This document shows, in pieces, positions 6,502-55,623 of a DNA stretch of 56,360 nt (positions are counted from its first letter, which is position 1; each line of letters starts with the position of its first letter). The notes below the pieces were generated by a model. The model did not search any database. It was given only the letters and a program-made list of their open reading frames with translations, and had not been told where the DNA came from. The translations under genes were made by a program, and so were the position numbers. The DNA comes from an uncultured Clostridia bacterium (GTDB lineage Bacteria; Bacillota; Clostridia; TANB77; CAG-465), in contig CALXBS010000005.1 of NCBI GenBank assembly GCA_944386605.1, positions 1-56,360 on the forward strand. Reading direction: 5' to 3'.

Positions 6502-6670
6502 TGAAAAGAGTTTGTCATATTTTTGTAAAAAATTCTTCCGAAATACTTGAAATTATATAAAAACACGATATAATATAAGTGTATATTTGTAAGTAAATGT
6601 CACTTATATTTTTTATGTAAAAATCAAGCAAATTTGTTTATCATAAATTAAGAGGAGAGGATTGGAATAT

Positions 6671-7939
6671 ATGGCAGATATCGTTGTTAGTTCTAAAAAG
6701 AAGATAAATCTTTTTGATAGAGTGATACAAAGTGTAATTATATTAGTAAATATGAACAAAATGAATAGAGCAATAGATGAACATTTAGCTGTGATTCGAA
6801 AAACAGAAGAAGAAGATAAAAAAGTAGATCAAGAAAATATTTTAAGAGAAATTGTTTTTGTAAAATATCAATATGATATTATGCAAAGAGAAATGTATGA
6901 ATTAAAGTTATCTTATCCTGCAGAAATTACAGATAAAATTAATTCTACTGTAAAAACAGATCGATTAGAATTACAAAAAGCTTTTTTAGAAATGGAATAT
7001 GATCGAATTACCAAAGCAAAATTTAAATCAAAAGAAGATATTAAATTTAATTTACTTACCATTTCATCTGCAATAGAAGCCGTAAAACAAGATATTAAGG
7101 ATGAAGGAAAAGCACAAAGATATAATAAAGTTATTAAGCTTGCAGAAGATATTGATGTTAAAATTCAAACAGAAGAGTATACAGAAGAACAATATAAAGA
7201 ACTATTTGAGGCAATTGATGAATATGTAGGGTATATCAATGATAATTATGATATTTCAAAATTACCTACAGATGAAAGAGAATTAATCGAATATGTGATT
7301 GAAACCATGATTAAAGGAATTGAATCAGACATTGATAGACACATGTATGAGTATAATTTAATCATTAATATAGCTAAAAATGCTTATCGCTATTTTAAAG
7401 TAATTGATAAAATCTTTTTAAAATTACAAAAAATCTATGATGAAAGCTTTAGTAAAGAGATTATGGATTTAAAAGATTATATTAAATTATTTGGTGAAGT
7501 CTATGATATGATGATTAAAACCAAAGTAAATGATGTGCATAGAACGATTAAAACAGAGGATGAATATTTAGAATATTCTAAATTACTTGCAAATGCAGAG
7601 GAAGAAGAAGTAAATAAATTTTTGTATGAAAGAGCATTAGAGACAACAGAAATAGAAAAAGTAAAAAAATTATTAAATCAAGCATTAGGAAATGAGGTAG
7701 AAGAAGAGGAAGTAGAGCAGGAAGCAGAAGATGCGATTGATGTAGAAGCAATTAAAATAGAAGAGGTTAAAGTTGAAAAAGTAAAAGAAACAAGGGAAGA
7801 GAAAAAGGCAAGGAAAGCAAAAGAAAAAGAAGAAAAGAAAGCTAAGAGAAAAGTAGGAAGACCTAGAAAAGAGGAAAAAATAGAAGAAGTAAAAGTAAAA
7901 AGAAGGGTAGGTAGACCTAGAAAAGAAGAAAAAGTTTAA
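6671..7939 (+). CDS. Hypothetical helical protein with an acidic linker and two C-terminal AT-hook (GRP) motifs
   Basis: Long ORF with RBS AGGAGAGG (TTG 6662 is an alternative start). C-terminus has an EVEEEEVEQEAED acidic tract, a K/E-rich tract, RKVGRPRK and RRVGRPRK. Confidence 0.75.
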   Translation: MADIVVSSKKKINLFDRVIQSVIILVNMNKMNRAIDEHLAVIRKTEEEDKKVDQENILREIVFVKYQYDIMQREMYELKLSYPAEITDKINSTVKTDRLELQKAFLEMEYDRITKAKFKSKEDIKFNLLTISSAIEAVKQDIKDEGKAQRYNKVIKLAEDIDVKIQTEEYTEEQYKELFEAIDEYVGYINDNYDISKLPTDERELIEYVIETMIKGIESDIDRHMYEYNLIINIAKNAYRYFKVIDKIFLKLQKIYDESFSKEIMDLKDYIKLFGEVYDMMIKTKVNDVHRTIKTEDEYLEYSKLLANAEEEEVNKFLYERALETTEIEKVKKLLNQALGNEVEEEEVEQEAEDAIDVEAIKIEEVKVEKVKETREEKKARKAKEKEEKKAKRKVGRPRKEEKIEEVKVKRRVGRPRKEEKV

Positions 7940-30399: not shown

Positions 30400-32130
30400 T
30401 TATGAAAAAATGGATAAGAAAAAGGTTAAGATTCTTTTAACAGGTGAACGGTTTTTGTTGTAAATAACAGGTAATGTGTTCATTGCAGAATCTTGATTAA
30501 AAATAGAGTAGCTTTCAGAAAGTCTTACCATTTTATATTGATAATCTTGATTGTTTTCTTTCATTTTTAAAATAGAAAAATCTTTTTCTTGCATAATAAC
30601 AATTAAATTAAAATCAATAGGCTCTGAAAATTTAGTAGTATAAATATTTTCGATTCTAACGTTTGAAAATTCTTTAAATTGTTCTTTTAAACTTGAATAA
30701 ATCTTTTCTATTTTTTCAGAATGTTGATGGGTAGTAGGGTTATTTAATAAATAGCCTAGATTATCCAGTTTAATAATATTTGTATTATTTTTTAAAGATT
30801 TACTTTGACGGTTTAGATTAGAAATTTCTACCAGTTGCAAGAAAGAATCATCTACGGATATAGCGGCAATAGAGGTGTTTTCTTTGTAAGATAGGTTATA
30901 TAATCTTTTAAATTTCATATCTTTATATATTTTAATATATTTATCACTAGAAAGTACTTCATTTGCAATACTATATTTCATTTTTTCTATTAAATTAGAA
31001 GCACTATTTTCAAAGGTATTTAATACTTTATATGAAATAGTGTTGTAAATTTGATTAGATAAATTTTGATTTTCTACAATAAGTATTTTTTCTAAGGTTT
31101 TTAATTTTAGCGTATAAGGAATGGTTGCATATTCTGCTTCTGCTTGTATGAAAGCATTAACAAGTATATTTTGCAAATTTGTAATTTCTTCTAAAATAGA
31201 ATTCTCTAAAGTAGTTATATTTTCAGATAAGCTAAGCTCAATATTAGAAGAAAACTGATCATCACGTTTAATTTCTTTTTCACCTAATTTTTGTAAATTG
31301 GTATGGATCGCCATTTCAATTTTTTTCTTTTCTTTTTGTAAATCTTCTATGTTTTGATTTAGAATATTTTTCTTAATATTTAAATAATTATCATCTAATA
31401 ATTTGTTTAAATAGACTAGTTTGTTATAATTAGAATATTTTCTACTAATAGTATCTAGAGTTTCTAATAATTTTTCAGGTTCTTCTAGTTTGGTTTTACT
31501 TAAAATCTTATTTAAAAATCTATTAGGATTTGTAAATAAATGATAATAAAATTCTTCTTCATCTAACTCAAAAGTATAACAAATTTGACTTAAAAGTTTT
31601 CCCTCCAAGAAGTATATATCATTGTCACTTGCAATTTTATTTCCTAAAAAATCATTTTCATAATTCCTATAAGTAGGGATGATACTTAGGGTAGTAGGTT
31701 CTGTGTAAAGGAGTCTACAAACAAGATTAGAAACAACTGCTCGATTGATTCCAAAGTTTTTGTGAATGATTTTATAACTGGTAGTTGATAGAGAAGCAGT
31801 TGAATATCCTACTTGAAAAGAACTATCGGATATTTCAGTAGTTGTCATGGCATAAAGAAGCCTTAAATAGACAGATTCTAGATTAGAAATATCACGTATA
31901 TATAATTCTTTTTTGACAGCGTCATAGTATCCTGTTTTAAAATCATGTTTGGTATCACTATCTAAAAATACGGTATCAATGTTTTCATATAATTGTCTTT
32001 CTAGTGTTCGTTGTGTTTTTTTGGTAATATATCCAAATTCTAATAATTTATCAAATATTTGATTTATTAAATCCATAAAATTAGGATTTAAGTTACATTT
32101 TTCCCTTAGTTTATCTAAATAGTTTATCAT
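30400..32130 (-). CDS. Hypothetical protein (~576 aa) with a coiled-coil middle region and a possible degenerate zincin-like N-terminus
   Basis: Long ORF with ATG 32130 behind GGAGGA. Hairpin TTGGAGT...ACTCCAA downstream at 30348-30377. Confidence 0.8.
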   Translation of the reverse strand: MINYLDKLREKCNLNPNFMDLINQIFDKLLEFGYITKKTQRTLERQLYENIDTVFLDSDTKHDFKTGYYDAVKKELYIRDISNLESVYLRLLYAMTTTEISDSSFQVGYSTASLSTTSYKIIHKNFGINRAVVSNLVCRLLYTEPTTLSIIPTYRNYENDFLGNKIASDNDIYFLEGKLLSQICYTFELDEEEFYYHLFTNPNRFLNKILSKTKLEEPEKLLETLDTISRKYSNYNKLVYLNKLLDDNYLNIKKNILNQNIEDLQKEKKKIEMAIHTNLQKLGEKEIKRDDQFSSNIELSLSENITTLENSILEEITNLQNILVNAFIQAEAEYATIPYTLKLKTLEKILIVENQNLSNQIYNTISYKVLNTFENSASNLIEKMKYSIANEVLSSDKYIKIYKDMKFKRLYNLSYKENTSIAAISVDDSFLQLVEISNLNRQSKSLKNNTNIIKLDNLGYLLNNPTTHQHSEKIEKIYSSLKEQFKEFSNVRIENIYTTKFSEPIDFNLIVIMQEKDFSILKMKENNQDYQYKMVRLSESYSIFNQDSAMNTLPVIYNKNRSPVKRILTFFLSIFS

Positions 32131-32354
32131 GATCTTCCTCCATAAACGAATATTGTTTATTTTCATTTTATAATAAATAAAAAAAATATACAAGAGTTTC
32201 TAGTATAAATGTGAAAAATCGATTAGAATTGATGATGAAAAATTAGATATAAAAATTTAAAAAATATTGCAACTTTTTTTATCATTAAAAGTGTCTATAT
32301 TATATACGGTAAAAAAAATAAATAAACAAATCATTTTAAAAAAGGAGAAAAAGT

Positions 32355-35429: not shown

Positions 35430-36134
35430 ATGGCACAAGAAATTTTTAATCGCATAGAGAAAAAGTATATGTTATATCAAGATGGGTATCAAAAATTAAT
35501 GCAAGAATTGGAACCATATATTACTTTAAATCCGTTTGGTCACCAAACGATATGTAATCTTTATTTTGATAATAGTACTTATGAAATAGCAAGAAATTCT
35601 ATTAGCAAACCTGTGTATAAAGAAAAAATTAGAGTAAGAAGTTATGGTATTCCAGATAAAGATACAAAAGTATTTTTAGAATTAAAGAAAAAATATAAAA
35701 AAATGGTAAATAAAAGAAGAATCGGTTTGACATTACAAGAGCTAGAAAGATATCTTTATTTTAATCGACCTCCAGAAAAAAATAAGCAAATATTTGAAGA
35801 GCTAGATTATTGTATTAAAACAAAACATTTAGTGCCTACCATGTATGTTGCTTATGATAGGGTATCTTATTTTGCAAACTCAGATGAAAATTTAAGAATT
35901 ACTTTTGATTCTAATTTAAGATATCGAAAAGAACACATCGATTTTGAATATGGAGATGTAGCTCAGAAATTTTTTGATCAAGATGTTTATATTATGGAGA
36001 TTAAAACGTTAAATGCTATTCCTTTATGGCTTGTTGATATTTTATCAAGGCTAGAAATATATCCAACTTCTTTTTCAAAGTATGGTGAAATATACAAAAA
36101 AGAAATATTAAAAAGAGAATGGGAGAGAGTTTAA
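35430..36134 (+). CDS. VTC / polyphosphate polymerase domain protein
   Basis: F.R.EKKY, I.NLYFD, KP.YKEK.RVRSYG, FLELKKKY, YDR, RITFD, MEIK and SFSKYG. Confidence 0.9.
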   Translation: MAQEIFNRIEKKYMLYQDGYQKLMQELEPYITLNPFGHQTICNLYFDNSTYEIARNSISKPVYKEKIRVRSYGIPDKDTKVFLELKKKYKKMVNKRRIGLTLQELERYLYFNRPPEKNKQIFEELDYCIKTKHLVPTMYVAYDRVSYFANSDENLRITFDSNLRYRKEHIDFEYGDVAQKFFDQDVYIMEIKTLNAIPLWLVDILSRLEIYPTSFSKYGEIYKKEILKREWERV

Positions 36135-36136
36135 CA

Positions 36137-36811
36137 ATGTTTGAAAGTATTTTAAATGAAAGTACAAGTAGTATTTCAATATCAAGTGCTTGTATTTGTA
36201 TGCTTGCTTCAATTATTTTAGGCCTTTGTATTGCCTTTATTCATATGAAGACAAGTAAATATAGTAAAAGTTTTGTCATTACGCTTGCAGTATTACCATT
36301 ATTAGTACAGGTAATTATTATGATGGTAAATGGAAATTTAGGAACTTCTGTAGCAGTTTTAGGTGCATTTGGCTTAATTAGATTTAGAAGTGCACCTGGT
36401 AGTGCAAAAGAAATTATTAGTATCTTTTTTGCAATGGCAGTAGGTCTTGCAATTGGTATGGGGCAAATTCTTTTTGCAGTTTTAATTACTGTTTTTGTTG
36501 GTTTAATGATAGTATTTTTATCTAAATCAAATATCTTAAATCCAAAAGGAAATGAGAAAAAATTAAAAATTGTTATTCCTGAAAATTTGGATTATAACGA
36601 AGTATTTCAAGATATATTTGAAGAATATTTAAACAAAGTAGAGTTAGAACAGGTAAAAACAACCAATTTAGGAAGTTTATATGAGTTAAGTTATGCTGTA
36701 AGTATAAAATCTGAAAAAAAAGAAAAGGAATTCATTGATAAATTAAGATGTAGAAATGGAAATTTAAACATTACTTTATCTAGAGAAATGTACGGTATCA
36801 ATGAATTATAG
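36137..36811 (+). CDS. DUF4956 family membrane protein
   Basis: SF..TLAVLP, IMMVNGNLG..VAV.GAF.LIRFRSAPG.AKEI, IPENLDY and LRCRNGNL.I. Confidence 0.9.
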   Translation: MFESILNESTSSISISSACICMLASIILGLCIAFIHMKTSKYSKSFVITLAVLPLLVQVIIMMVNGNLGTSVAVLGAFGLIRFRSAPGSAKEIISIFFAMAVGLAIGMGQILFAVLITVFVGLMIVFLSKSNILNPKGNEKKLKIVIPENLDYNEVFQDIFEEYLNKVELEQVKTTNLGSLYELSYAVSIKSEKKEKEFIDKLRCRNGNLNITLSREMYGINEL

Positions 36812-36820
36812 GAGGAAAGG

Positions 36821-38638
36821 ATGAAATATTATAGAGTAGGAAAATCAAATCTAAAAGTAATACTCATTATTATTGTTTTATTAATTGTGTTAGGTGGTAT
36901 CATTTGGATTGTGATGGATTCGTCTAGTAAAAAAATGAGTGGGGAAGATGTCTTAACAAGTGATTACCAAGCAAGTATTCGTCTGCAAGATAACAATTCT
37001 ACCATAGAGGGAAGTGGAGCTTCTGTAAATGGAGATGTTATTACCATTACACAAGCAGGTAAATATTATATTAGTGGATCTTTGAGCGATGGGCAGATTA
37101 TAGTGGACGCTACTTCTAATGATGAAATAGAACTTGTATTAGATTCTGTGGATATCACATCTAAAACAAGCAGTCCTATTTATATCAAGCAAAGTAAATC
37201 GACAACCATTTTACTTGCAGATGGTACTGTAAATGAATTAAGTGATACAAAAGATTTTGTATATACAGATGTTGTAGAAGAGGAACCAAATGCAACCATC
37301 TATTCTAAAGATGATTTGTATTTTACAGGAAATGGTGCTTTAAATCTTTCTTCTAATTTTAATGATGCCATTGGATGTTCAGATAGCGTAGTGATTGAAA
37401 GTGGTAATATTTCTATTGTTTCAGTAGATCATGGTATTAGAGCAAAAGATGGAGTAACTATTAAAGGAGGCGTAACAAAAATAGAGGCTTCTGGCGATGG
37501 TATTAAAACTAAAAATACAGAAGAAAGTGATAAAGGAAATATTGTTGTTGAAGGTGGAGAACTTGAAATTATTGCTACACAAGACGGCTTTGATTCTGCA
37601 AATGGAATTTATGTATCTGGTGGAGATTTAAATATAACAACTGGTGGAGGCAGTCAAAACGCTAGTACAAAAGAAAGTTGGGGAATGTGGCAAACTAGTA
37701 CAACTACAGAAGAATCTACAAGTGCTAAAGGAATCAAAGCAAATGCACTTCTTGAAATTAGTGGTGGTAACATCAGCATTGATTCTTCAGATGATAGTTT
37801 ACATTCTAATAATGATCTAACCATATCAGGAGGAACGCTTTCTTTATCTTCTGGTGATGATGGAATACATGCAGATAGTGAAATTATAATTAATGATGGA
37901 AGTATTGAAATTACAAAATCTTATGAAGGAATTGAAAGTACTAATATTACTATTGAAAACGGAGCTATTTCAATTGTAAGTAGTGATGATGGAATTAATA
38001 TTTGTGGTGGAAATGATAGCTCATCACTAGGTGGAAGACCAGGACAGAATATGTTTGAGGCAACAGATGGAGAATTAACCATTCATGGAGGAACTATCTA
38101 TGTAAATGCGTCAGGTGATGGTTTAGATTCTAATGGAAATATTGTTATGACAGGTGGAACTGTTTTAGTAGATGGACCTGTAGATGGAGGAAATGGTGCA
38201 TTAGACTATAACGGAACATTTGATATTAGTGGAGGTACTTTAATTGCAGTAGGAAGTAGAGAAATGGCTCAGTCCTTAAGCAGTTCTTCTACACAAGCAA
38301 GTATTTTAATTAATTTAACACAAGAAGCAAGTGCTAACCAAATAATCCATTTACAAAATAGTAATGGAGAAGAAATTATCACTTATGCACCAAGTAAAAA
38401 ATATAGTTCTATTGTAGTTTCTACGCCAAATATAAAGCAAAATGAAAGTGTAGAAGTATATTTAAGTGGTAGTCATAGTGGTACAAATACAAATGGTCTT
38501 TATACAGGTGGAAGTTATACATCTGGTGAACTACTTACAACCATTCAAATTACAGGAATTTTAAATTCTTATGGATCAGGTGGTATGATGAATAATATGC
38601 CAGGTGGAAATATGGGTATGCCAGGAGGTATGAGATAG
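36821..38638 (+). CDS. Carbohydrate-binding beta-helix protein (Cthe_2159 family)
   Basis: N-terminal TM; ITI..AG.Y.ISG.L.DGQI.V and repeated I.GG...I....DG/DDG coils; M/G/P-rich tail. Confidence 0.88.
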   Translation: MKYYRVGKSNLKVILIIIVLLIVLGGIIWIVMDSSSKKMSGEDVLTSDYQASIRLQDNNSTIEGSGASVNGDVITITQAGKYYISGSLSDGQIIVDATSNDEIELVLDSVDITSKTSSPIYIKQSKSTTILLADGTVNELSDTKDFVYTDVVEEEPNATIYSKDDLYFTGNGALNLSSNFNDAIGCSDSVVIESGNISIVSVDHGIRAKDGVTIKGGVTKIEASGDGIKTKNTEESDKGNIVVEGGELEIIATQDGFDSANGIYVSGGDLNITTGGGSQNASTKESWGMWQTSTTTEESTSAKGIKANALLEISGGNISIDSSDDSLHSNNDLTISGGTLSLSSGDDGIHADSEIIINDGSIEITKSYEGIESTNITIENGAISIVSSDDGINICGGNDSSSLGGRPGQNMFEATDGELTIHGGTIYVNASGDGLDSNGNIVMTGGTVLVDGPVDGGNGALDYNGTFDISGGTLIAVGSREMAQSLSSSSTQASILINLTQEASANQIIHLQNSNGEEIITYAPSKKYSSIVVSTPNIKQNESVEVYLSGSHSGTNTNGLYTGGSYTSGELLTTIQITGILNSYGSGGMMNNMPGGNMGMPGGMR

Positions 38639-38992: not shown

Positions 38993-39077
38993 TGGTGCGG
39001 GTAAAAGGACTTGAACCTTCACGCCGTTAGACATCGGCTTCTAAGACCGACGCGTCTGCCAATTCCGCCATACCCGC
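38993..39077 (-). tRNA. tRNA-Leu (anticodon TAG)
   Basis: The reverse complement GCGGGTATGGCGGAATTGGCAGACGCGTCGGTC-TTAGAA-GCCGATGTCTAACGGCGTGAAGGTTCAAGTCCTTTTACCCGCACCA forms a cloverleaf with a long variable arm and encoded CCA. Promoter TTGACA-17-TAATAT at 39123-39095. Confidence 0.95.
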
Positions 39078-40517: not shown

Positions 40518-40669
40518 AAAAGAAAGTAACCTCTTTTTTCAGAAAAAATATTATGTTTCTTGTATCATGAGAATAAAAAAAAACACTTGTAATAGGTTGA
40601 TTTAATTTTTTACATTTGATATACTAAACGTATATTTTGTATTTACCTGAAATGGGGGTTGCTTTCTAT

Positions 40670-43600
40670 ATGGAAAAAGAACAATATGGTTTAACTTTTC
40701 CTCAGAAAAATATTTGGTTAGTTGAAAAATATCACAAAGATATAGGAATTAACACTTTAATAGGAATTGTAAACATAAAAAGAGATTTTAATGCAAAAAC
40801 GTGTATTTTGGCATTAAATGATCTTCTTAAATATGATGAAAATATGAGAATAAGAGTAGATTTTGATGGAGAAAAAGCTACTCAATATGTTGCTGACTAT
40901 GAAGTAGAAGAAATAGAGATTGTAGATATGTCTAAATACTCTGATCAAGAAATAGAGGAGTATACTCAAAAATTGGCATCGCATTCTCTTTTTTTGTTAA
41001 ATGAGAAGCTATTTACTTTTAAAATATTTGAGTATCAAGATGGGACAGGAGCAGTTTGTTTTGCTTTGCACCATATTATGAGTGACGCATGGTCTGGCGG
41101 ATTGATTGTTTCTAAATTTGTAAAATATTATGAATTAGAAAAGAAAGGACAACCATTAAGTGAAGAAGTAATTCCTTCCTATTTAGACTATGTGGTAACA
41201 GAAAAAGAATATGCAGAGTCAGAAAAATATCAGAAAGATCAAGCTTTTTGGGAAGAATATCTAGCGGGAACGCCAAAAGTTGCTAGTTTAAAAAAAGTAA
41301 CAAAGAAAAGAAAAAATCATGCACAAAGATATAGTGTGATATTAGAACAGGATTTTAATCAAAAATTATTAGAGTTTTGCAAAGAAAACCGTATTTCTCC
41401 ATATACACTTTTTATGTGTATTCTTGGTATCTATATTTACAAAACCACTTATTTAGAAGATTTTATCATAGGAACACCTGTATTAAATCGTGGAAATTTT
41501 AAAGAAAAAAATATGATTGGCATGTTTGTATCTACCATTCCTTATCGTATGAAGATAACAGGGGAAGAAGAGGTTATGTCTTTTTGTAAGGAAACTACTA
41601 GAAATATTATGACTATTTTTAGACACCAGAAATACCCTTATTCAGAGATGTTAGAGTATGTTCATAAAAATACAAGTTTAAAGAGTAATCTTTACCAAAT
41701 TGTTCTTTCTTACCAAAATGCAAGAGCAGATTACCAAGGGTTAGAGGATTATTCTGCAACTTGGCATTTTAATCATTTATTAAATGAGGAATTACAGATA
41801 CATATTACAGATTTAAATAACAATGGTATATTAGAGATTTATTATGATTATTTAACCGATACTTTTTCAGAAGAGGAAATCAAACTGATCCATTTAAGAC
41901 TAATGAAGTTATTAAAAGATATAATGGATAAAGTGGATATGAAAATAAAAGAAGTGGATCTTGTTCCGGAGGAAGAAAAGAGATTATTGCAAGAGTTTAA
42001 TGTTACAAGTGTTCCTTATCCAAAAGAAAAGACAGTTGTTACTTTGTTAGAGGAACAAAAAGAAAAAACACCTGAAAATATTGCTCTCATTTATGGCAAT
42101 GAGAAAATGTCTTATCAAGAGCTTTGTCAAAGGATCGATCAATTTGCTTCTAATTTACAAGATATCAAAGGGGAAAATATTTTGGTATATGCTAAGAATT
42201 CTTTTGAAGTAGTGATTGCTATTTATGGAATTTTAAAGTCAGGAAATACCTATATTCCAGTTGGAATTGACACTCCATTAGATAGGGTTTCTCATATTAT
42301 AGAGGATAGTCATTGCCGATACGCAGTGTCTGATGTAGAGTTAAAGGATGTCATCTTACTAAATGTAAATCAAAAGAAAAATCCAAACTGGGTAAATAGG
42401 ATAGAAGCAAAGCCTCAAGATATTGCTTATATGATCTATACTTCTGGTTCTACTGGAAGACCAAAAGGTGTAAAAATTTCTCATCAGTCTCTTACAAATT
42501 ACATTTGGTGGGCAAAAAAATCGTATGTTACAACAGAACTTCCTGTTATGCCCCTTTATTCTTCTATTGGTTTTGATCTTACAGTAACAACGTTATTTAT
42601 GCCTTTAATTGCCGGTGGTACTATCCTTATTTGTAGTAATAACCATGAGGAAATTATTAATATTTTTAGACAGGATAATGTAAGTATTGTAAAATTAACA
42701 CCTGCACATTTATCGATTATTAATGAGGCAAATATTAAAATAAAAAATATTCATACATTGATATTAGGCGGAGAAGCTTTAAAAACCTCAGATGCAAAAA
42801 TGATTACGAGACTCGGAAATCGTATGAAGATTTTTAATGAATATGGCCCTACAGAAGCAACGGTTGGTTGTATGATTTATGAGTATAATGCAAAGGATAA
42901 AACAGAAACGGTTCCTATTGGAAAACCGGCAGATAATGTCTCTATTTATATTTTGGATAAAGAAAATAAATTGTGTCCTTTGGAAGTGGAGGGAGAACTT
43001 TGCATTGAGGGAGATGGCTTGGCACAAGGATATTACCATTTAGATGATATGACACGAAAAGTGTTTGTAAAAAATCCTGTAACAGGAAATAGGATGTATA
43101 AAACTGGGGATATTGCTAAGATGGGAATGGATCTTAATGTAAGGTACATTGGAAGAAAGGATCAACAAATTAAGATACATGGAAACCGAATAGAGTTAGA
43201 AGAAATTGAAAATATTGTAAAGGATGAATTTGATGTTAAAAATGCAGTCGCTACTGTTCAAAATGTATTAAATACCCCTAATATTTATTTGTATTATGTA
43301 TCTGATTATGAATATAGTGATGAAGTTTTTCAAAATAGGTTAAAAGAAGTATTACCAAGTTATATGATTCCTTTTAAATATATTAAAATTGATAAAATTC
43401 CAATTAATCGAAATGGAAAAGTGGTAAGAAAAGAATTGCCTTTACCAGAAGTAGTGATAAAAGAAGATAAAGAGGAAGTTTCGTATCAAAATGAATTAGA
43501 AGAGCTACTTTGCAAAACTTGGGAAGAATTGTTAAATATCAAAGGGGTTAGACCAACAGATCAAATTTTAGATTATGGTGTTGATTCTTTAAATATTATT

Positions 43601-44848
43601 AAATGCCAGGTAAAACTTTCTAATATTCTAGGAGTAATTGATATTCAAGCTTTTTATGATTATCCTGTGATACGTGATTTTTGCAATAATATTAGAAAGA
43701 AAAATAAAAAAGAAGAAATTTCTGTACGTGAATTAGAAAAGTACCAAGAAGTAATGCCACCTCAAAAAATTTCTTTGGAGGCAAAGGAAGGAATTATTTT
43801 AACAGGAGCTACTGGTTTTTTAGGAGTACATTTGTTAAGAGAATTTTTATTACGTAAAGAGATAAAAAAGATTTATTGTATTGTTCGAGGAATCGATTAT
43901 GAAAAAAGGCTATATAAACGTTTCTTAGAGTATTTTGGTCATGAGTATGATTCTTTATATCATGAAAAAGTACTTCCTATCAAAGGAAATATTGAAGAGG
44001 AAAATTTAGGACTTTCAGAACAAGAATTAGAACAAATTTTACCAAATGTTTTTAAAATTGTAAATGCGGCAGCTATGGTAAAACATAATGGAATTGTAAG
44101 AGAATTTCAAAGGATTAATGTGGTTAGTGTAGAAAGTTTAATTAAGCTTTGTTTAAAATATGATCTTGTACTAGATCACATTTCAACCATGAGTGTTTCA
44201 GGACAGGATGGTAGAAAAGCGTTAACAGAAGAACGTTTCTATATTGGACAAGATTACCAAATCAATCCATATATTACTTCTAAGTTTAAAGCAGAATACC
44301 TTATTTTAAAAGCACAAGATAGAAAAAAATTAAAGGCAAATATTTATCGTGTAGGAAATTTAACATGGCGCTATGCAGATGGAAAGTTTCAAGTAAATGA
44401 GAAAGATAATGCCTTTTTGATGAGTATTAAAAATATTTTAGATCTTGAGGTATATCCAAGTAGCTTTAAGAAAATAGAGCTTGAACTAACACCGGTTGAT
44501 GTAGCTTCTCATTTTATTGTTTCTTTGATGTTCCATGATTTGGATATTGTAAATAAGGTATATCATATTTGTCATTTAGATAAAGTAAAATTAACTACAT
44601 TGATCCATTGTTTAGACGTTCCGTTACAAGAAGTAGATGAAAATACGTTTTCTTTGAAAGCCAAAAACTTTGATACGGATGAAAATCGTATTTTAAATGA
44701 AGTATATCATTTTGCAAATATGTTAAAATCTAAGGTAGATAATAGAAAAACAATAGAAGAATTAGAGTCCATGGGGAAAAAATGGCCTCCGATTTCTAAA
44801 GAATATCTTGGTTATATTTTTGATATTATACATAGGGGGAAAAAATGA
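40670..44848 (+). CDS. Single-module NRPS: condensation - adenylation (Asn-type code) - thiolation - thioester reductase (C-A-T-R)
   Basis: C: LT.PQ..IW and HHIMSDAWS. A: YMIYTSGSTGRPKG, FDLTVT, NEYGPTEATV, MYKTGD, GRKD.QIKI.G.RIEL.EIE and NGK. T: GVDSL. R: ILTGATGFLGVHLL, HISTMSV and Y..SK..AE. Confidence 0.93.
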   Translation: MEKEQYGLTFPQKNIWLVEKYHKDIGINTLIGIVNIKRDFNAKTCILALNDLLKYDENMRIRVDFDGEKATQYVADYEVEEIEIVDMSKYSDQEIEEYTQKLASHSLFLLNEKLFTFKIFEYQDGTGAVCFALHHIMSDAWSGGLIVSKFVKYYELEKKGQPLSEEVIPSYLDYVVTEKEYAESEKYQKDQAFWEEYLAGTPKVASLKKVTKKRKNHAQRYSVILEQDFNQKLLEFCKENRISPYTLFMCILGIYIYKTTYLEDFIIGTPVLNRGNFKEKNMIGMFVSTIPYRMKITGEEEVMSFCKETTRNIMTIFRHQKYPYSEMLEYVHKNTSLKSNLYQIVLSYQNARADYQGLEDYSATWHFNHLLNEELQIHITDLNNNGILEIYYDYLTDTFSEEEIKLIHLRLMKLLKDIMDKVDMKIKEVDLVPEEEKRLLQEFNVTSVPYPKEKTVVTLLEEQKEKTPENIALIYGNEKMSYQELCQRIDQFASNLQDIKGENILVYAKNSFEVVIAIYGILKSGNTYIPVGIDTPLDRVSHIIEDSHCRYAVSDVELKDVILLNVNQKKNPNWVNRIEAKPQDIAYMIYTSGSTGRPKGVKISHQSLTNYIWWAKKSYVTTELPVMPLYSSIGFDLTVTTLFMPLIAGGTILICSNNHEEIINIFRQDNVSIVKLTPAHLSIINEANIKIKNIHTLILGGEALKTSDAKMITRLGNRMKIFNEYGPTEATVGCMIYEYNAKDKTETVPIGKPADNVSIYILDKENKLCPLEVEGELCIEGDGLAQGYYHLDDMTRKVFVKNPVTGNRMYKTGDIAKMGMDLNVRYIGRKDQQIKIHGNRIELEEIENIVKDEFDVKNAVATVQNVLNTPNIYLYYVSDYEYSDEVFQNRLKEVLPSYMIPFKYIKIDKIPINRNGKVVRKELPLPEVVIKEDKEEVSYQNELEELLCKTWEELLNIKGVRPTDQILDYGVDSLNIIKCQVKLSNILGVIDIQAFYDYPVIRDFCNNIRKKNKKEEISVRELEKYQEVMPPQKISLEAKEGIILTGATGFLGVHLLREFLLRKEIKKIYCIVRGIDYEKRLYKRFLEYFGHEYDSLYHEKVLPIKGNIEEENLGLSEQELEQILPNVFKIVNAAAMVKHNGIVREFQRINVVSVESLIKLCLKYDLVLDHISTMSVSGQDGRKALTEERFYIGQDYQINPYITSKFKAEYLILKAQDRKKLKANIYRVGNLTWRYADGKFQVNEKDNAFLMSIKNILDLEVYPSSFKKIELELTPVDVASHFIVSLMFHDLDIVNKVYHICHLDKVKLTTLIHCLDVPLQEVDENTFSLKAKNFDTDENRILNEVYHFANMLKSKVDNRKTIEELESMGKKWPPISKEYLGYIFDIIHRGKK

Positions 44849-46752
44849 TTAAAAAATTAAAAAAGTTAAAAGTAACTACAAAATTAATTCTCATTAATTT
44901 AGCAATGTATATCATATTTGGAGTATTGGTATATCCATTAATTCCATATTTGCTAAATTATCCACCAAATTCTATTGACAATGAATTTCAAACAACCGTT
45001 GTGGGAATGCAATATACAGAACAGTTTATCATGTTGTTTATTTTAGGTGTGGTATTGCTAAGTGCTATTTTGTATTTTTCTTTTAGAAAACTAAATCATA
45101 TTGAAGAATATAAACAGGGGAAAAGTGAGCAAGATAAGAAAAACTTGTTAAAGGTAAGAGACATTGCTGCAAATGGAATTTATCGATTGATTCCCACTAC
45201 TGTTTTGTGTATTGCAATAGGAGTAGGACTTATTCTAACACTTGCTTCTACTGAGTTTATGCTAACGGTAAAATTAACAGTAATACTTTGTATTTGGGGA
45301 GCTTTATCTAATTTGCTACTTTACGTATTTACTGCTAAAATTTTTCATAAGATATTAAATGATAGTTACTATTATATTGATCCTGATCAAGATAGTATTA
45401 AAAGGCTAGGATTAAAAAATAAAATGCGTATTCAAAATTTATCTGCAGTCCTTATTATCCTATTTATACTAACCTTTTTTGGATATTCTAGAATTCAATA
45501 TGAAAGAGGCGAATTTTTAAAAGAAAAAGAATTACGAGAATTAAATAGTATTATTTTAGAAGAAAAAGATTTGGATCATTTGATTGAAACAAGTCAAGAC
45601 AGCTATTTTATTATGACGAAAGATGGAGAAGTATTAAATGAAAATTGTGAAGTTAGTAAATTTGCAATAGAGTATATTTTGCATTTTCCAGAGATGAATA
45701 GAGTATACACACAATATGCTTCTTCTATCGAAGGTGTATATCAATTAGTTGATTACCACGGACAAGAATGTTATTTTGTAAAAATATATAATATTATGCC
45801 AAATTTTTATACCCTATATTTTGTTATATTTGACGCTGTTTTATTGCTTATTTATTATATCATTACAGGTGTATTTATTAGAAATATCAATAATGAACTT
45901 GCCATTGTTACAGACCGAATGAATGTGATTGGTGATCGTACAGATGAAATTGGAACCAAAATTGCCATTACTTCTAATGATGAGTTTAGTGATTTGGTAC
46001 GTGCATATAACAAAGTGCAGAAAAACACAGAAAATTATGTAAAAGAAATTAATGAAAAACAAGATATCATCGTAAAACAGGGACAATTAGTATCTATTGG
46101 TGAACTTGCCGGAGGAGTAGCACATGATATCAATACACCTATTTCTGCAATTAAGACAGGTATTACCATGTTAAATCAAGCAGATAATTTGACACCAGAA
46201 CAAAAAGTGATTTTAGAAAGAATGGATAGTTGCTCTACGAAAATTATTAATATTGTAAACAGTATGAGAAATCAGATTAGAAATCTTGGTTCTGATCATG
46301 TGGTTGATTTTAAAATTAGTGATGTTATTAATGATGTTAAAGTTATTACTTATCATGAAGTCACTAAAAGCAAGGCTGAGTTAAGAATAAAAATAGAAGA
46401 TGATTTGGTAATTCAAGGAGATCCAACTAAACTTGGTCAGGTATTAACCAATATGGTGGTAAATGCAGCACAAGCCTATACAAAACAAGAAGGCGGAAAA
46501 ATTGAGATTACAGTTATGAAAGCACCTAATCATTTTGCGATGATTAAGGTAACTGACTTTGCTGGAGGAATACCAGAAGAAGTACGACCATACATTTTTA
46601 AAAATATTTTAACCACAAAAGGAACTAGTGGAACAGGGCTTGGCTTGTATCTTGCTTATTCTGTTATAAAAGGAAATTTCCATGGGGATATTACCTATGA
46701 AACGAAAACGGGTGTGGGTACTACTTTCTATATCACGATTCCAAGAGCTTAA
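44845..46752 (+). CDS. Multi-TM sensor histidine kinase (HAMP-HisKA-HATPase), no adjacent response regulator
   Basis: About six hydrophobic segments, HAMP SNDEF.DL..AYN, H-box GELAGGVAHDINTP, N-box QVL.N.V.NA, D.AGGI, TTKG..GTGLGL and GT.F.I.IP. Start overlaps the NRPS stop (ATGA). Confidence 0.93.
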   Translation: MIKKLKKLKVTTKLILINLAMYIIFGVLVYPLIPYLLNYPPNSIDNEFQTTVVGMQYTEQFIMLFILGVVLLSAILYFSFRKLNHIEEYKQGKSEQDKKNLLKVRDIAANGIYRLIPTTVLCIAIGVGLILTLASTEFMLTVKLTVILCIWGALSNLLLYVFTAKIFHKILNDSYYYIDPDQDSIKRLGLKNKMRIQNLSAVLIILFILTFFGYSRIQYERGEFLKEKELRELNSIILEEKDLDHLIETSQDSYFIMTKDGEVLNENCEVSKFAIEYILHFPEMNRVYTQYASSIEGVYQLVDYHGQECYFVKIYNIMPNFYTLYFVIFDAVLLLIYYIITGVFIRNINNELAIVTDRMNVIGDRTDEIGTKIAITSNDEFSDLVRAYNKVQKNTENYVKEINEKQDIIVKQGQLVSIGELAGGVAHDINTPISAIKTGITMLNQADNLTPEQKVILERMDSCSTKIINIVNSMRNQIRNLGSDHVVDFKISDVINDVKVITYHEVTKSKAELRIKIEDDLVIQGDPTKLGQVLTNMVVNAAQAYTKQEGGKIEITVMKAPNHFAMIKVTDFAGGIPEEVRPYIFKNILTTKGTSGTGLGLYLAYSVIKGNFHGDITYETKTGVGTTFYITIPRA

Positions 46753-46821
46753 TGAATAGAAATAACGAATGAAATAATCATTAATGAACGAAAAATAAAA
46801 ATGAATAAAAGAAAAGGTAAA

Positions 46822-46852
46822 TTGGGGTGGATTTAAATTCGCTCCAATTTTT
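46822..46852 (+). terminator. Terminator of the NRPS-kinase unit; diverged third copy of the 27751/29761 hairpin
   Basis: TTGGGGTGGATTTAAATTCGCTCCAATTTTT. Confidence 0.65.
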
Positions 46853-47050
46853 ATATTTAATAATATATTTAGAATAAACATCTATAGAAACGACTTTAAC
46901 ATTATATTTTGGTTAATTGCAACTTTTTGTTGACGAACAAAAGAAATTAAAGTATAATCTATATTATGTAACTTAGTAGTTGGTCACCACATAATTGTGT
47001 GAGGAATAGGTAAGGAGGAATTTTCAAAGTGAAAATTTAGAATAAAAGAT

Positions 47051-47812
47051 ATGATTACTGTTAACCAAGCAAAAAGAGGTAAGGGCATGAAGGAAGTAAT
47101 AAAAGAACTATCATTAAAATTTGGTCTTGAGGGAATGGAAATTAAAACCACTATATCTAATGATGATCTTTTAGAGTGGGTTTTATTTAAGACAAAGTTC
47201 GAGTCTTTATATTTTAATTTCCCCGAATTAACAGAAAATGGTTTGAAATATTGCCAAGTCATTTATGAATTCAGGAGAAATGGTAAAAAAATAAAAATGG
47301 TTGTAACAGAAGAAATGCTTTATGTGGAAAGCAATATCTACTCTCTAATCAATATTGAGACAAATGATTCGGTAAATTTACTGGAAAGGAATCCTAAAGA
47401 ATTGATGGCTGCCATTCAAAAGTTTTTAAGAAGTGAGAGATCTAGAACATACTATGATGGGCTAGAGAGGTATATCACTTTAGTAAGAGAGCTAGGACTT
47501 GAGCTGAAGCAGATTAAAAATTTAGATATGAGCTCAATATGTATAGAAGAAGGAGAAATCAAACTGCTCCGTGAAGAAAAAAGATCTTTTTTTATCGAGT
47601 ATGCCTGGGGAAAATGCAAATATATTGATGAGGATTTTGAAACTTCTGAAATAACGGAGGGGAACTTTGAACTAATATTGCGTGGGAGTCTTAAAGAAAT
47701 TGAGGAGATGAAATTAAGTAAATTGTTGGCAAGAGCTAAAAAAAGAATGAAAAACATTCGCTTAAAGGTGAAGCAGTTTAATGAAAAAAATAAAAAGGAT
47801 ATCTTAGTTTAA
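47051..47812 (+). CDS. Hypothetical protein (start uncertain: 47051, 47087 or a frameshifted 47029)
   Basis: Long ORF with promoter TTGACG-17-TATAAT (46930-46958) and a terminator at 47823-47861. Confidence 0.7.
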   Translation: MITVNQAKRGKGMKEVIKELSLKFGLEGMEIKTTISNDDLLEWVLFKTKFESLYFNFPELTENGLKYCQVIYEFRRNGKKIKMVVTEEMLYVESNIYSLINIETNDSVNLLERNPKELMAAIQKFLRSERSRTYYDGLERYITLVRELGLELKQIKNLDMSSICIEEGEIKLLREEKRSFFIEYAWGKCKYIDEDFETSEITEGNFELILRGSLKEIEEMKLSKLLARAKKRMKNIRLKVKQFNEKNKKDILV

Positions 47813-50053: not shown

Positions 50054-50812
50054 ATGGAACAGTTAGTGGAAAATTTTTTGGCGAATGGGCGGAGTGAGCA
50101 GACATTTATGCAAATGTACTTATCTTATGTGAAGACACGTTATTTAGACTATTTGCAGTTAGAGACGTTAGAAGAGTTTAAAAGTTTTCTAAGCAGTAAT
50201 TTTGATGAGGAGACAGTTAAAGAGGCACTTGAATCATTAAAGCACTTTTATCAGTATTTGATTAAAAGTGGGAAAATAGATAAAAAAAGCTTCTCATCAA
50301 GAGTGTTTTCGCAAAATTTAACGGTTGGCCCTATTAGTATTTTTGCTTTTTGTGATAGTGTAGGTAAGCTAACAAATCATTTAATTAAAAGAATCCGTGA
50401 AAAAGAATTTAGAAATAATGAATTATTTTTGTTACGGGATCTTTCGATTATTTATTTGTTGCTAGATACAGATCTAACTTTTTACGAGATTTCAAAGTTA
50501 ACTTCTGGTAATTTGCGATTTAGAGATGGATATCTTAAGTTTCAGGGAGATAAGCAACAAACGCTTATTGTAAAACTTGCAAAAAGAGATATTACCGCAT
50601 TAGAAAATTACTTGGAGATGTATGAGAAAAGTGAGGGAAGAACAAGCTATCTGTTATTTTTTGGAAGACAATCCGATGTTTATCAGGAAACACTTTTTAA
50701 TCGGAATTTAAAAGAATATTCTAAAAATTTCGGGATTACTACGAGTGTAAATGCTAGTCAGATCAGAAAAGTGGGACAGTTTTTAAGAGGATATAAGATT
50801 GAATTAGAGTAA
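50054..50812 (+). CDS. Degenerate tyrosine-recombinase (XerC/D-like) fold protein lacking the catalytic residues
   Basis: SLKHFYQYL and RDLSIIYLLLDTDLTFYEI.KL (compare RD.A...LL..TG.R..E...L). The HxLRH box reads ASQIRK, and the ORF ends before the catalytic Tyr region. Own promoter at 49972-50000. Confidence 0.6.
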   Translation: MEQLVENFLANGRSEQTFMQMYLSYVKTRYLDYLQLETLEEFKSFLSSNFDEETVKEALESLKHFYQYLIKSGKIDKKSFSSRVFSQNLTVGPISIFAFCDSVGKLTNHLIKRIREKEFRNNELFLLRDLSIIYLLLDTDLTFYEISKLTSGNLRFRDGYLKFQGDKQQTLIVKLAKRDITALENYLEMYEKSEGRTSYLLFFGRQSDVYQETLFNRNLKEYSKNFGITTSVNASQIRKVGQFLRGYKIELE

Positions 50813-55146: not shown

Positions 55147-55623
55147 ATGATTAAAGACTTAGGAAGTAATTATGAAGGTTTTTTTATTCGGAAAATCGGC
55201 GAAGGTTTTTCAGAAGTTCCAGAAGGTTTTATTCTTGACGAAAAAGAAGGTACAAAAGTATTATTGTTTCCTGGAAGGTATAAAAATTTTAGAATTTGTA
55301 CAGATCATTCCATTGGCTCTGTAGCAATTTATGTTTCTAAATGCTGGGATAAGATGTTTTTAGAAGGAGGTAGTGGAATTTGCAAAGGATATGAAGGAGA
55401 TAGTTATCTAAGACTTTTTTATTTACCTGTAGAAGATACTTTTATAGCAGAGATAGACGGTATGATAACGGCGGTAATTCCAGAGGGAAAAACGCTTTAT
55501 ATCGGTATAGATAAAGATCATTTGCTCCACATCGAAAATATACGTGACAGATTAAAATTTACGGGAAGTAGAGATATACTGGATGAAGAAACGAATCAGG
55601 TGATTTTAAGTAATTTAGATTAA
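55147..55623 (+). CDS. Hypothetical protein (158 aa)
   Basis: RBS AAGGAG; promoter TTGACA-17-TATAAT at 55087-55115; terminator at 55630-55663. Confidence 0.75.
   Translation: MIKDLGSNYEGFFIRKIGEGFSEVPEGFILDEKEGTKVLLFPGRYKNFRICTDHSIGSVAIYVSKCWDKMFLEGGSGICKGYEGDSYLRLFYLPVEDTFIAEIDGMITAVIPEGKTLYIGIDKDHLLHIENIRDRLKFTGSRDILDEETNQVILSNLD

Follow-up and report, generated by a model that had tools for sequence, protein, structure and literature searches.

We analysed a stretch of 56,360 nucleotides (hereafter the window; contig CALXBS010000005.1, positions 1 to 56,360, of assembly GCA_944386605.1) from an uncultured Clostridia bacterium of the family CAG-465 in the order TANB77. It encodes an intact nonribosomal peptide synthetase (NRPS) with one condensation (C), one adenylation (A), one carrier (T) and one reductase (R) domain, and the next gene encodes a membrane histidine kinase. 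Comparison with related loci leads us to favor, on balance, the view that the synthetase makes a signal derived from asparagine and that the kinase is its receptor, feeding the turnover of cyclic di-GMP (c-di-GMP). The first two steps of the pathway proposed below are firmer than this whole chain and the last one is much weaker. The chemistry proposed for the synthetase by a previous sequence-only reading is sound as a prediction; the significance of the locus lies in the cassette, synthase and kinase together.

Organization and distribution of the NRPS-kinase cassette

In all 53 loci of the host family with a visible next gene, the kinase lies directly 3' of the NRPS (60 loci were examined, 7 of which end at a contig edge), and the genes that flank the pair vary among lineages. 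Among 79 genomes of the family, 56 encode the NRPS and 59 the kinase; 55 encode both and 19 neither. The genome of the window (G000; 1.66 Mb, 92% complete) has no other NRPS, and the adjoining kinase is its only one without a neighboring response regulator. This kinase is a simple, non-hybrid one, HisKA and HATPase being its only Pfam matches. No terminator-like hairpin was found on the + strand between the two genes. A promoter pattern of the TTGATT-17-TATACT type is found upstream of 33 of 39 family synthetases, against a mean of 0.24 and a maximum of 2 in shuffled sequences. Upstream of these synthetases, no conserved operator, shared box or enrichment in 0A boxes was found. The cassette is undescribed in the literature that we searched, which covers few subscription journals.

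The association extends beyond the family. Four other families of the order provided 20 loci, all selected by their kinase; in 19 of these, the NRPS is adjacent to the kinase or at most three genes away from it. Outside the order, 6 of the 17 genomes examined (a set that leaves out G278, G354 and G604) carry an operon made of the NRPS, the kinase and a regulator with receiver (REC), DUF3369 and HD-GYP domains. Furthermore, a metagenome scan for sensors of the window's type (class II, see below) gave at least two loci, both with the NRPS-kinase-regulator layout. The kinase is found without an adjoining synthetase in four genomes, and one genome (G058) has four extra kinase copies.

Several loci depart from the common layout. 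Solo or duplicated kinases with a seven-transmembrane (7TM) sensor and without synthetase (L164-L169, L174, L175 and L117) are possible eavesdropping receptors. G036 lacks the synthetase at the usual xseA/rmuC-nth position, five kinases in all occur in G058, and G061 has two cassettes (L100 and L103) that differ in their codes and sensor classes. Frameshift-like splits affect the synthetase or the kinase in L084, L102, L133, L134, L181, L185 and L187, and may reflect decay, phase variation or assembly error. Two loci of the family f3 (L176 and L178) encode an NRPS of 2500 amino acids with one visible A domain and a thioesterase end (Pfam, L176), followed by a 7TM kinase and a receiver-pseudokinase. 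A gene for a membrane protease frequently comes immediately before the synthetase in other families (L183, L184, L187, L189 and L192-L194); it has trypsin and PDZ domains according to Pfam in L183 and L189, the others being look-alikes. In other Clostridia (L282 and L283), the gene after an R-domain NRPS encodes a Ser/Thr kinase-AAA protein, or else a TPR protein accompanied by Sfp, perhaps representing other receptor types.

The synthetase and its predicted product

The open reading frame (ORF) of the synthetase extends from 40637 to 44848 on the + strand, with a likely start at the ATG at 40670. Pfam matches are Condensation (residues 15-451), AMP-binding (471-800), PP-binding (957-1017) and NAD_binding_4 (1055-1293). 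The sequence-only reading was attached to positions 42400..44848, which do belong to the 3' part of this ORF but leave out the whole C domain, including its HHIMSDA motif (41069-41089). The Asn code announced by that reading was recovered at ten residues placed via flanking motifs (D647, L648, T651, K686, I709, G711, E735, V743, G744 and K928, hence DLTKIGEVGK), with a spacing relative to GrsA numbering that we assume; we also take this code to be specifically the tyrocidine one. The A domain matches the 1amu structure (E 1.5e-85). Its core clusters with 21 other DLTK[IV]GEVGK A domains in a clade of 22, with a support of 100 in the Shimodaira-Hasegawa-like approximate likelihood ratio test (SH-aLRT), separate from 19 domains with other codes. 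In the available text of PMC12283262, DLTKIGEVGK stands under the Asp/Asn section and also fits beta-cyano-alanine, which is made from Asn.

The R domain, likewise part of the initial prediction, is well supported, since it combines the NAD_binding_4 match with intact motifs (TGATGFLG and the catalytic Thr-Tyr-Lys residues T1184, Y1212 and K1216). As far as the available descriptions go, the product of Mru_0351, one of its closest solved relatives, is unknown and AusA has an aldehyde-releasing R domain. The starter type of the C domain, also predicted, agrees with a tree of 54 C and epimerization (E) domains: all 16 sampled N-terminal C domains of the cassettes lie beside the first C domain of 10 stand-alone C-A(Asn)-T-E proteins (SH-aLRT 100) and are separate from LCL, DCL and E domains. 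These reference proteins, which no NCBIfam model names, are uncharacterised and resemble ClbN by architecture only. In the accessible part of PMC8264950, prodrug starters of C-A-T-E layout make N-acyl-D-Asn. HHIMSDA had been pointed out as a variant motif. It is present, but it is no anomaly or defect since DA is the usual ending in the family, seen in 53 of the 55 N-terminal C motifs that could be read, the 12 internal C motifs all ending in DG.

Related cassettes include an acyl-AMP ligase in three cases (L181, L185 and L188) and an acyl carrier protein (ACP) in three (L179, L181 and L185). Elsewhere in its genome, the host encodes three acyl-ligase homologues, one ACP (C10) and one AcpS-size transferase (C21), and no ketoacyl synthase was found in this 92% complete genome. 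N-acylation of Asn by a scavenged fatty acid is likely because of the starter-C tree, the ligase and ACP genes of related cassettes and this gene content of the host. Having kept ACP, AcpS and three acyl ligases without a detected ketoacyl synthase, the host is a probable fatty-acid auxotroph. An N-acyl-L-Asn aldehyde or alcohol is a reasonable prediction for the product. According to the available part of PMC8024701, aldehyde or alcohol release by R domains is not predictable from sequence, and an asparaginol-releasing R domain is proposed for rotihibin in that of PMC8552735. Therefore, a cyclic hemiaminal is only one option. No N-acyl-asparaginal natural product was found in the literature searched.

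Two sensor classes and apparent exchange of a block between lineages

Thirty-two codes occur among 68 A domains of the family, in one- and two-module enzymes, Asn being found in 3. Among the loci compared, inside the family or outside it, we read other codes as resembling those for Gly, Val, Leu, Ser, Thr or Pro. In the supplement of PMC12283262, four codes had no match in the text, the tables lying outside it.

The usual sensor of the family kinases (class I) is made of HisKA_7TM and PAS. The window's kinase has another one (class II), shared by six family loci, among them the window and the other two with an Asn code. Class II matched no Pfam sensor family, and the profiles of class II and 7TM sensors gave no cross-match. 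In the structure model (predicted local distance difference test, pLDDT, 87.7), the Cache/PDC-like region (residues 212-330) best matches 3ub6 (Z 8.3, root-mean-square deviation 3.8, 115 residues aligned), which is near the level common in such searches. The membrane bundle has generic helical structural matches only (Z <8), which is not proof of a new fold, and Foldseek returned no match for the class II sensor at E 0.001 or better. The 19 class II loci that are visible in full (L191 is cut) all have a single-module synthetase. The multi-module loci whose kinase is visible, 20 in number, all have class I sensors.

The kinase-core tree tracks genus and puts the three family Asn loci on three separate branches. 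Monophyly of these three kinase cores is rejected by the approximately unbiased (AU) test (p 4.1e-5; 38 rows from the genera g1, g3 and g5, one truncated row being omitted), and the tree of an unlinked regulator gene reproduces the three placements of the Asn-locus genomes. The A and R domains of the three loci form clades, each with an SH-aLRT of 100. From the A core through the sensor, the window locus is closer to the two other Asn loci than to three sister loci (sensor identity 47-62% versus 11-25%), whereas this order is reversed in the kinase core, where the sister loci are closer. Moreover, for 44 class I rows, the 7TM tree needs 10 code and 11 genus changes and the kinase-core tree 17 and 4.

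From these comparisons, A, T, R and sensor appear to be passed between lineages as one block, whereas the kinase core keeps to its host. What selects and releases the residue is transferred along with what senses, and what chooses the downstream partner remains in place. The sharp switch at the sensor-kinase border is the pattern of specificity-group loci. The idea of a signal-like product, already put forward from the sequence, gains strength from a feature which that reading did not cover, this co-varying receptor kinase next to the NRPS. An origin of the Asn A domain straight from Bacillota C-A-T-E genes was considered but not borne out, the family Asn domains grouping first with another family of the order (SH-aLRT 89).

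Candidate output of the kinase

In 11 of the 20 loci from other families, a regulator of one receiver family lies right after the kinase (7 HD-GYP and 4 pseudokinase regulators), and these partner regulators have no DNA-binding Pfam domain. Searched against the host genome, the profile of their receivers scores 149 bits with an HD-GYP protein, 132 with a receiver-pseudokinase and 32 with Spo0A. The host has one orthologue of each regulator type, both unlinked to the NRPS-kinase pair. The C-terminal half of the pseudokinase is homologous to the core of the sensor kinase, with Gln at the His position (hhalign 97.5%). Full scores for this regulator are obtained in 58 of 59 kinase-positive genomes and in 2 of 20 kinase-negative ones. 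In the kinase-negative genomes, the receiver is without acidic pocket, phospho-Asp and Lys in 8 of 8 fetched copies. It decays, yet the C-terminal half is kept, which suggests that the pseudokinase has a phosphorylation-independent job. In G058, the pseudokinase lies directly behind the kinase.

In the family HD-GYP protein, the catalytic motifs are intact and Asn replaces the phospho-Asp in 13 of 13 copies examined; in relatives, the HD-GYP protein is adjacent to the kinase and its receiver Asp is intact. A pseudokinase dimer folded with the HD-GYP pseudo-receiver scored 0.36, against 0.00 for the best control (contact agreement at least 88%, partner pLDDT at least 80). Of 157 solved complexes, 116 pass the mark used, as do 2 of 215 mismatches; 18 of the 157 and both mismatches do so at 0.60 or less. 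The model thus lends weak support to docking of the pseudokinase dimer on the HD-GYP pseudo-receiver, such passes being more often wrong than right unless the pairing was likely beforehand. As kinase-receiver complexes have already been solved, the score may show likeness only. One protein of the host has an intact GGDEF motif.

The host has 14 receivers. Besides Spo0A, it encodes three Spo0A-like regulators and a single-domain receiver next to spoIVA, all without adjacent kinase (C7:24265-24987, C18:4707-5522, C18:5540-6238 and C4:12745-13128).

Proposed pathway and alternative explanations

As its code indicates, the A domain would attach L-Asn to the carrier. Priming of the carrier is probably the task of the single AcpS-size transferase of the host. 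The starter C domain, a type assigned by the tree, would then acylate the loaded Asn with acyl-CoA or acyl-ACP as donor, the chain probably being built from scavenged fatty acid. The R domain would release N-acyl-asparaginal or, with somewhat lower probability, reduce it further to N-acyl-asparaginol; the aldehyde may close to 4-acylamino-5-hydroxypyrrolidin-2-one. The product would leave the cell or enter the membrane and, as co-variation suggests, the class II sensor would bind it. The kinase would then phosphorylate the unlinked receiver-pseudokinase, a partner suggested by its adjacency in relatives and by co-decay. In the weakest step, the His-less half of the pseudokinase might act on the single HD-GYP phosphodiesterase and set c-di-GMP. 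As one of dozens of dialects, the Asn version would have reached a resident locus when an A-T-R-sensor block recombined into it.

Several observations weigh against this reading. The signalling pair is predicted from genomes, and product, binding and phosphotransfer are likewise predictions. The A10 motif reads NGKVVR, no Sfp-type transferase was found in the 92% complete host genome and the cassette has no exporter. Outside the order, 11 of 17 R-domain NRPSs have no such kinase. Of seven Asn cassettes, six have class II sensors and L279 a 7TM one. Ser-, Thr- and Pro-like codes are found with class II sensors as well; hence, sensor class does not equal amino acid. The rule that a class II sensor means Asn or a polar residue was dropped, since L279 and loci with Gly-like or other codes are exceptions to it. 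Since the sensor adjoins A-T-R, linkage alone could produce their co-transfer. The left crossover was not located because the AU values for the placement of the window's C domain (0.11 and 0.13) do not settle it. The eight decayed pseudokinase regulators form one clade and therefore count as a single event. Lastly, no c-di-GMP riboswitch was found in the host genome, in a search whose RF01051 control gave no match anywhere.

The same data could be read otherwise. The product might stay in the membrane of its own cell and report fatty acid and amino acid supply to the kinase, as a private nutrient gauge. The host has no detected ketoacyl synthase but keeps ACP, AcpS and acyl ligases, the cassette lacks an exporter and the conserved promoter is a plain housekeeping one, without any shared upstream box found. 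However, the diversity of codes, the block swapping and the kinases without synthetase (four genomes, and the four extra copies of G058) favor signals between cells, and the Cache-like domain of the class II sensor sits between two membrane helices, so that we regard such a gauge as unlikely. We give a still lower probability to an aldehyde directed at the host or at competitors, with a kinase that senses it for self-protection or regulates the cluster in the ordinary way. Inhibition of host proteases is reported for gut NRPS-R dipeptide aldehydes in the accessible parts of PMC8210680 and PMC12327764, and the intact R domain is close to AusA-R. The inhibition of Asn-specific proteases, also evoked by the sequence-only reading, nevertheless finds poor support in a product with one residue only, in a slot that Gly-, Val-, Leu-, Ser- and Thr-like codes occupy in relatives. 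Moreover, the partner regulators are not of the DNA-binding kind by Pfam and an Asn aldehyde could mask itself by ring closure. In the reading that we favor, the product would not be a protease inhibitor.

Spo0A had been the first idea for a direct target, suggested by the orphan status of the host's kinase; the product would then be a sporulation cue. This kinase is the only orphan of a genome that has Spo0A, three Spo0A-like proteins and spoIIE/spoIVA. However, a Spo0A_C match is found in 19 of the 20 kinase-negative genomes, and the regulators adjacent to the kinase in relatives belong to another receiver family, against whose profile Spo0A scores poorly. Spo0A was set aside on this receiver-family evidence and on the co-decay of the pseudokinase: the kinase is probably not a Spo0A kinase, direct phosphorylation of Spo0A seems very unlikely to us, and an indirect effect on sporulation may exist. 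Finally, a non-acylating C domain would leave free asparaginal, which could dimerise to a pyrazine-type or other non-acylated signal. The motif ending in DA rather than DG and the lack of a dedicated acyl ligase in host-family cassettes would fit this scheme. We hold it to be highly improbable, since the His-His and Asp residues are conserved, the C domain is kept whole across the family and sister to acylating-type starters, and related cassettes contain ligase and ACP genes.

Comparison with known systems

The agr and comQXPA loci recombine the signal gene and the sensor part as a block on a conserved kinase core; their signals are ribosomal peptides and their regulators bind DNA. The window cassette likewise joins a conserved kinase core to a variable block for signal and sensor but differs by its signal gene, an NRPS, and by its partner regulators. 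The other comparisons are based on the portions of the cited papers available to us. The diffusible signal factor (DSF) system RpfF-RpfC-RpfG (PMC6337780) has a small lipid signal, a membrane kinase and a REC-HD-GYP c-di-GMP phosphodiesterase output, which the proposed pathway would resemble. However, the window synthase is an NRPS and not an enoyl-CoA hydratase like RpfF, its kinase is simple and not a hybrid like RpfC, and dialects are many. Furthermore, the HD-GYP receiver of the host family lacks the Asp and is unlinked, and a receiver-pseudokinase seems to be interposed. Polymorphism of A domains also sets specificity groups in the Dickeya Vfm system (PMC9306890), but the latter has stand-alone A domains, a cluster of 26 genes and a kinase that does not co-vary. 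By analogy, the cassette would combine a DSF-like logic with Vfm- or agr-like specificity groups, yet be a member of none of these systems.

Among synthetases, the gut Clostridia NRPSs that yield N-acyl dipeptide aldehydes (ruminopeptin; Guo et al. 2017, as reviewed in PMC8210680 and PMC12327764) also have an N-terminal C domain, a terminal R domain and reductive release. They have two modules, a layout shared by the two-module members of the host family, whereas the window NRPS has one module with an Asn code, is accompanied by a co-varying receptor kinase and is proposed to serve signalling. The prodrug starters ClbN, ZmaO and that of xenocoumacin (PMC8264950) are alike in their starter C and Asn A domains. 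The window NRPS has an R domain in place of the epimerase, hence L-Asn and release, and no downstream assembly line. No ClbP-like peptidase was seen among the window's Pfam matches; no genome-wide search for one was made. The rotihibin synthetase RthA (PMC8552735) also ends with an Asn module and an R domain, giving asparaginol, but it makes a five-module Streptomyces lipopeptide and no linked kinase is described in the available text.

Other features of the window

Table 1. Coordinates of the cassette, its parts and the candidate regulators (window positions unless another handle is given)
Feature	Position	Strand	Basis or remark
Single-module NRPS C-A-T-R, predicted N-acyl-Asn aldehyde/alcohol synthase	40670..44848	+	Pfam domains, code, motifs
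Starter-type condensation domain	40679..41989	+	Pfam, motif, tree
Adenylation domain, code DLTKIGEVGK	42047..43441	+	Pfam, code residues, tree
A-code codons	42575, 42578, 42587, 42692, 42761, 42767, 42839, 42863, 42866, 43418	+	
Carrier (T) domain	43505..43687	+	Ser in YGVDSL (43574-43591)
Thioester reductase (R) domain	43793..44809	+	Closest solved relatives 6vtj (Mru_0351) and AusA-R
Membrane histidine kinase, start overlapping NRPS stop (ATGA)	44845..46752	+	HisKA and HATPase; His427 at 46123
Class II sensor: bundle of four membrane helices, Cache/PDC-like domain flanked by two more such helices, HAMP-like linker	44845..46044	+	Structure model
Housekeeping-type promoter, extended -10 (TTGATT-17-TATACT)	40597..40625	+	Promoter scan with total at chance level
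Terminator-like hairpin closing the NRPS-kinase unit	46819..46850	+	Hairpin search
Receiver-pseudokinase	G000 C2:30374-31405 (L153:3375-4406)		Receiver fused to His-less, degenerate kinase core
REC-HD-GYP, single copy	G000 C18:20568-21593 (L155:3069-4094)		Present in 79/79 family genomes

An ORF that follows the kinase (47051-47812, 253 amino acids) lies behind its own strong promoter-like site (46930-46958). Like three others (30400-32193, 597 amino acids; 6662-7939, 425; 55147-55623, 158), it has no Pfam or NCBIfam match. A remnant of a Xer-like tyrosine recombinase with weak matches (best E 1e-12) is located at 50054-50812, and no mobile element was seen around it. Upstream of the cassette, a three-gene operon (35430-38638) encodes VTC-domain, DUF4956 and Cthe_2159 proteins, and one tRNA gene lies on the minus strand at 38996-39077; a tRNA was the only result of an Rfam search of the window. 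One RNA run gave matches (0.09 share), with two contigs within the A domain that match it without a differing letter. Since DNA in the library was not excluded, these matches are no evidence for transcription or habitat.

Biological significance

Genomes of about 1-2 Mb keep this large NRPS as a near-core gene, which suggests that it does something basic. A wider scheme, which we put forward tentatively and consider doubtful as a whole, would be a signalling language shared by several families of Clostridia. R-ended NRPSs would write dozens of dialects made of N-acyl amino aldehydes or alcohols, read by two unrelated receptor folds on one kinase core and, in the host family, relayed by a pseudokinase docking on a phosphorylation-dead HD-GYP protein to set c-di-GMP. 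N-acyl-asparaginal, possibly as a hydroxylactam shaped like an acyl-homoserine lactone, would be one autoinducer, and gut NRPS aldehydes, at present regarded as inhibitors of host proteases, could partly be bacterial signals. If the synthetase and the kinase are indeed signal maker and receptor, these abundant and little-studied Clostridia would have a defined communication chemistry. HisKA_7TM sensors and the unnamed Cache-type sensor would gain a candidate ligand class. The cassette would also allow a direct test of bacteria, instead of the host, as the target of gut NRPS aldehydes.

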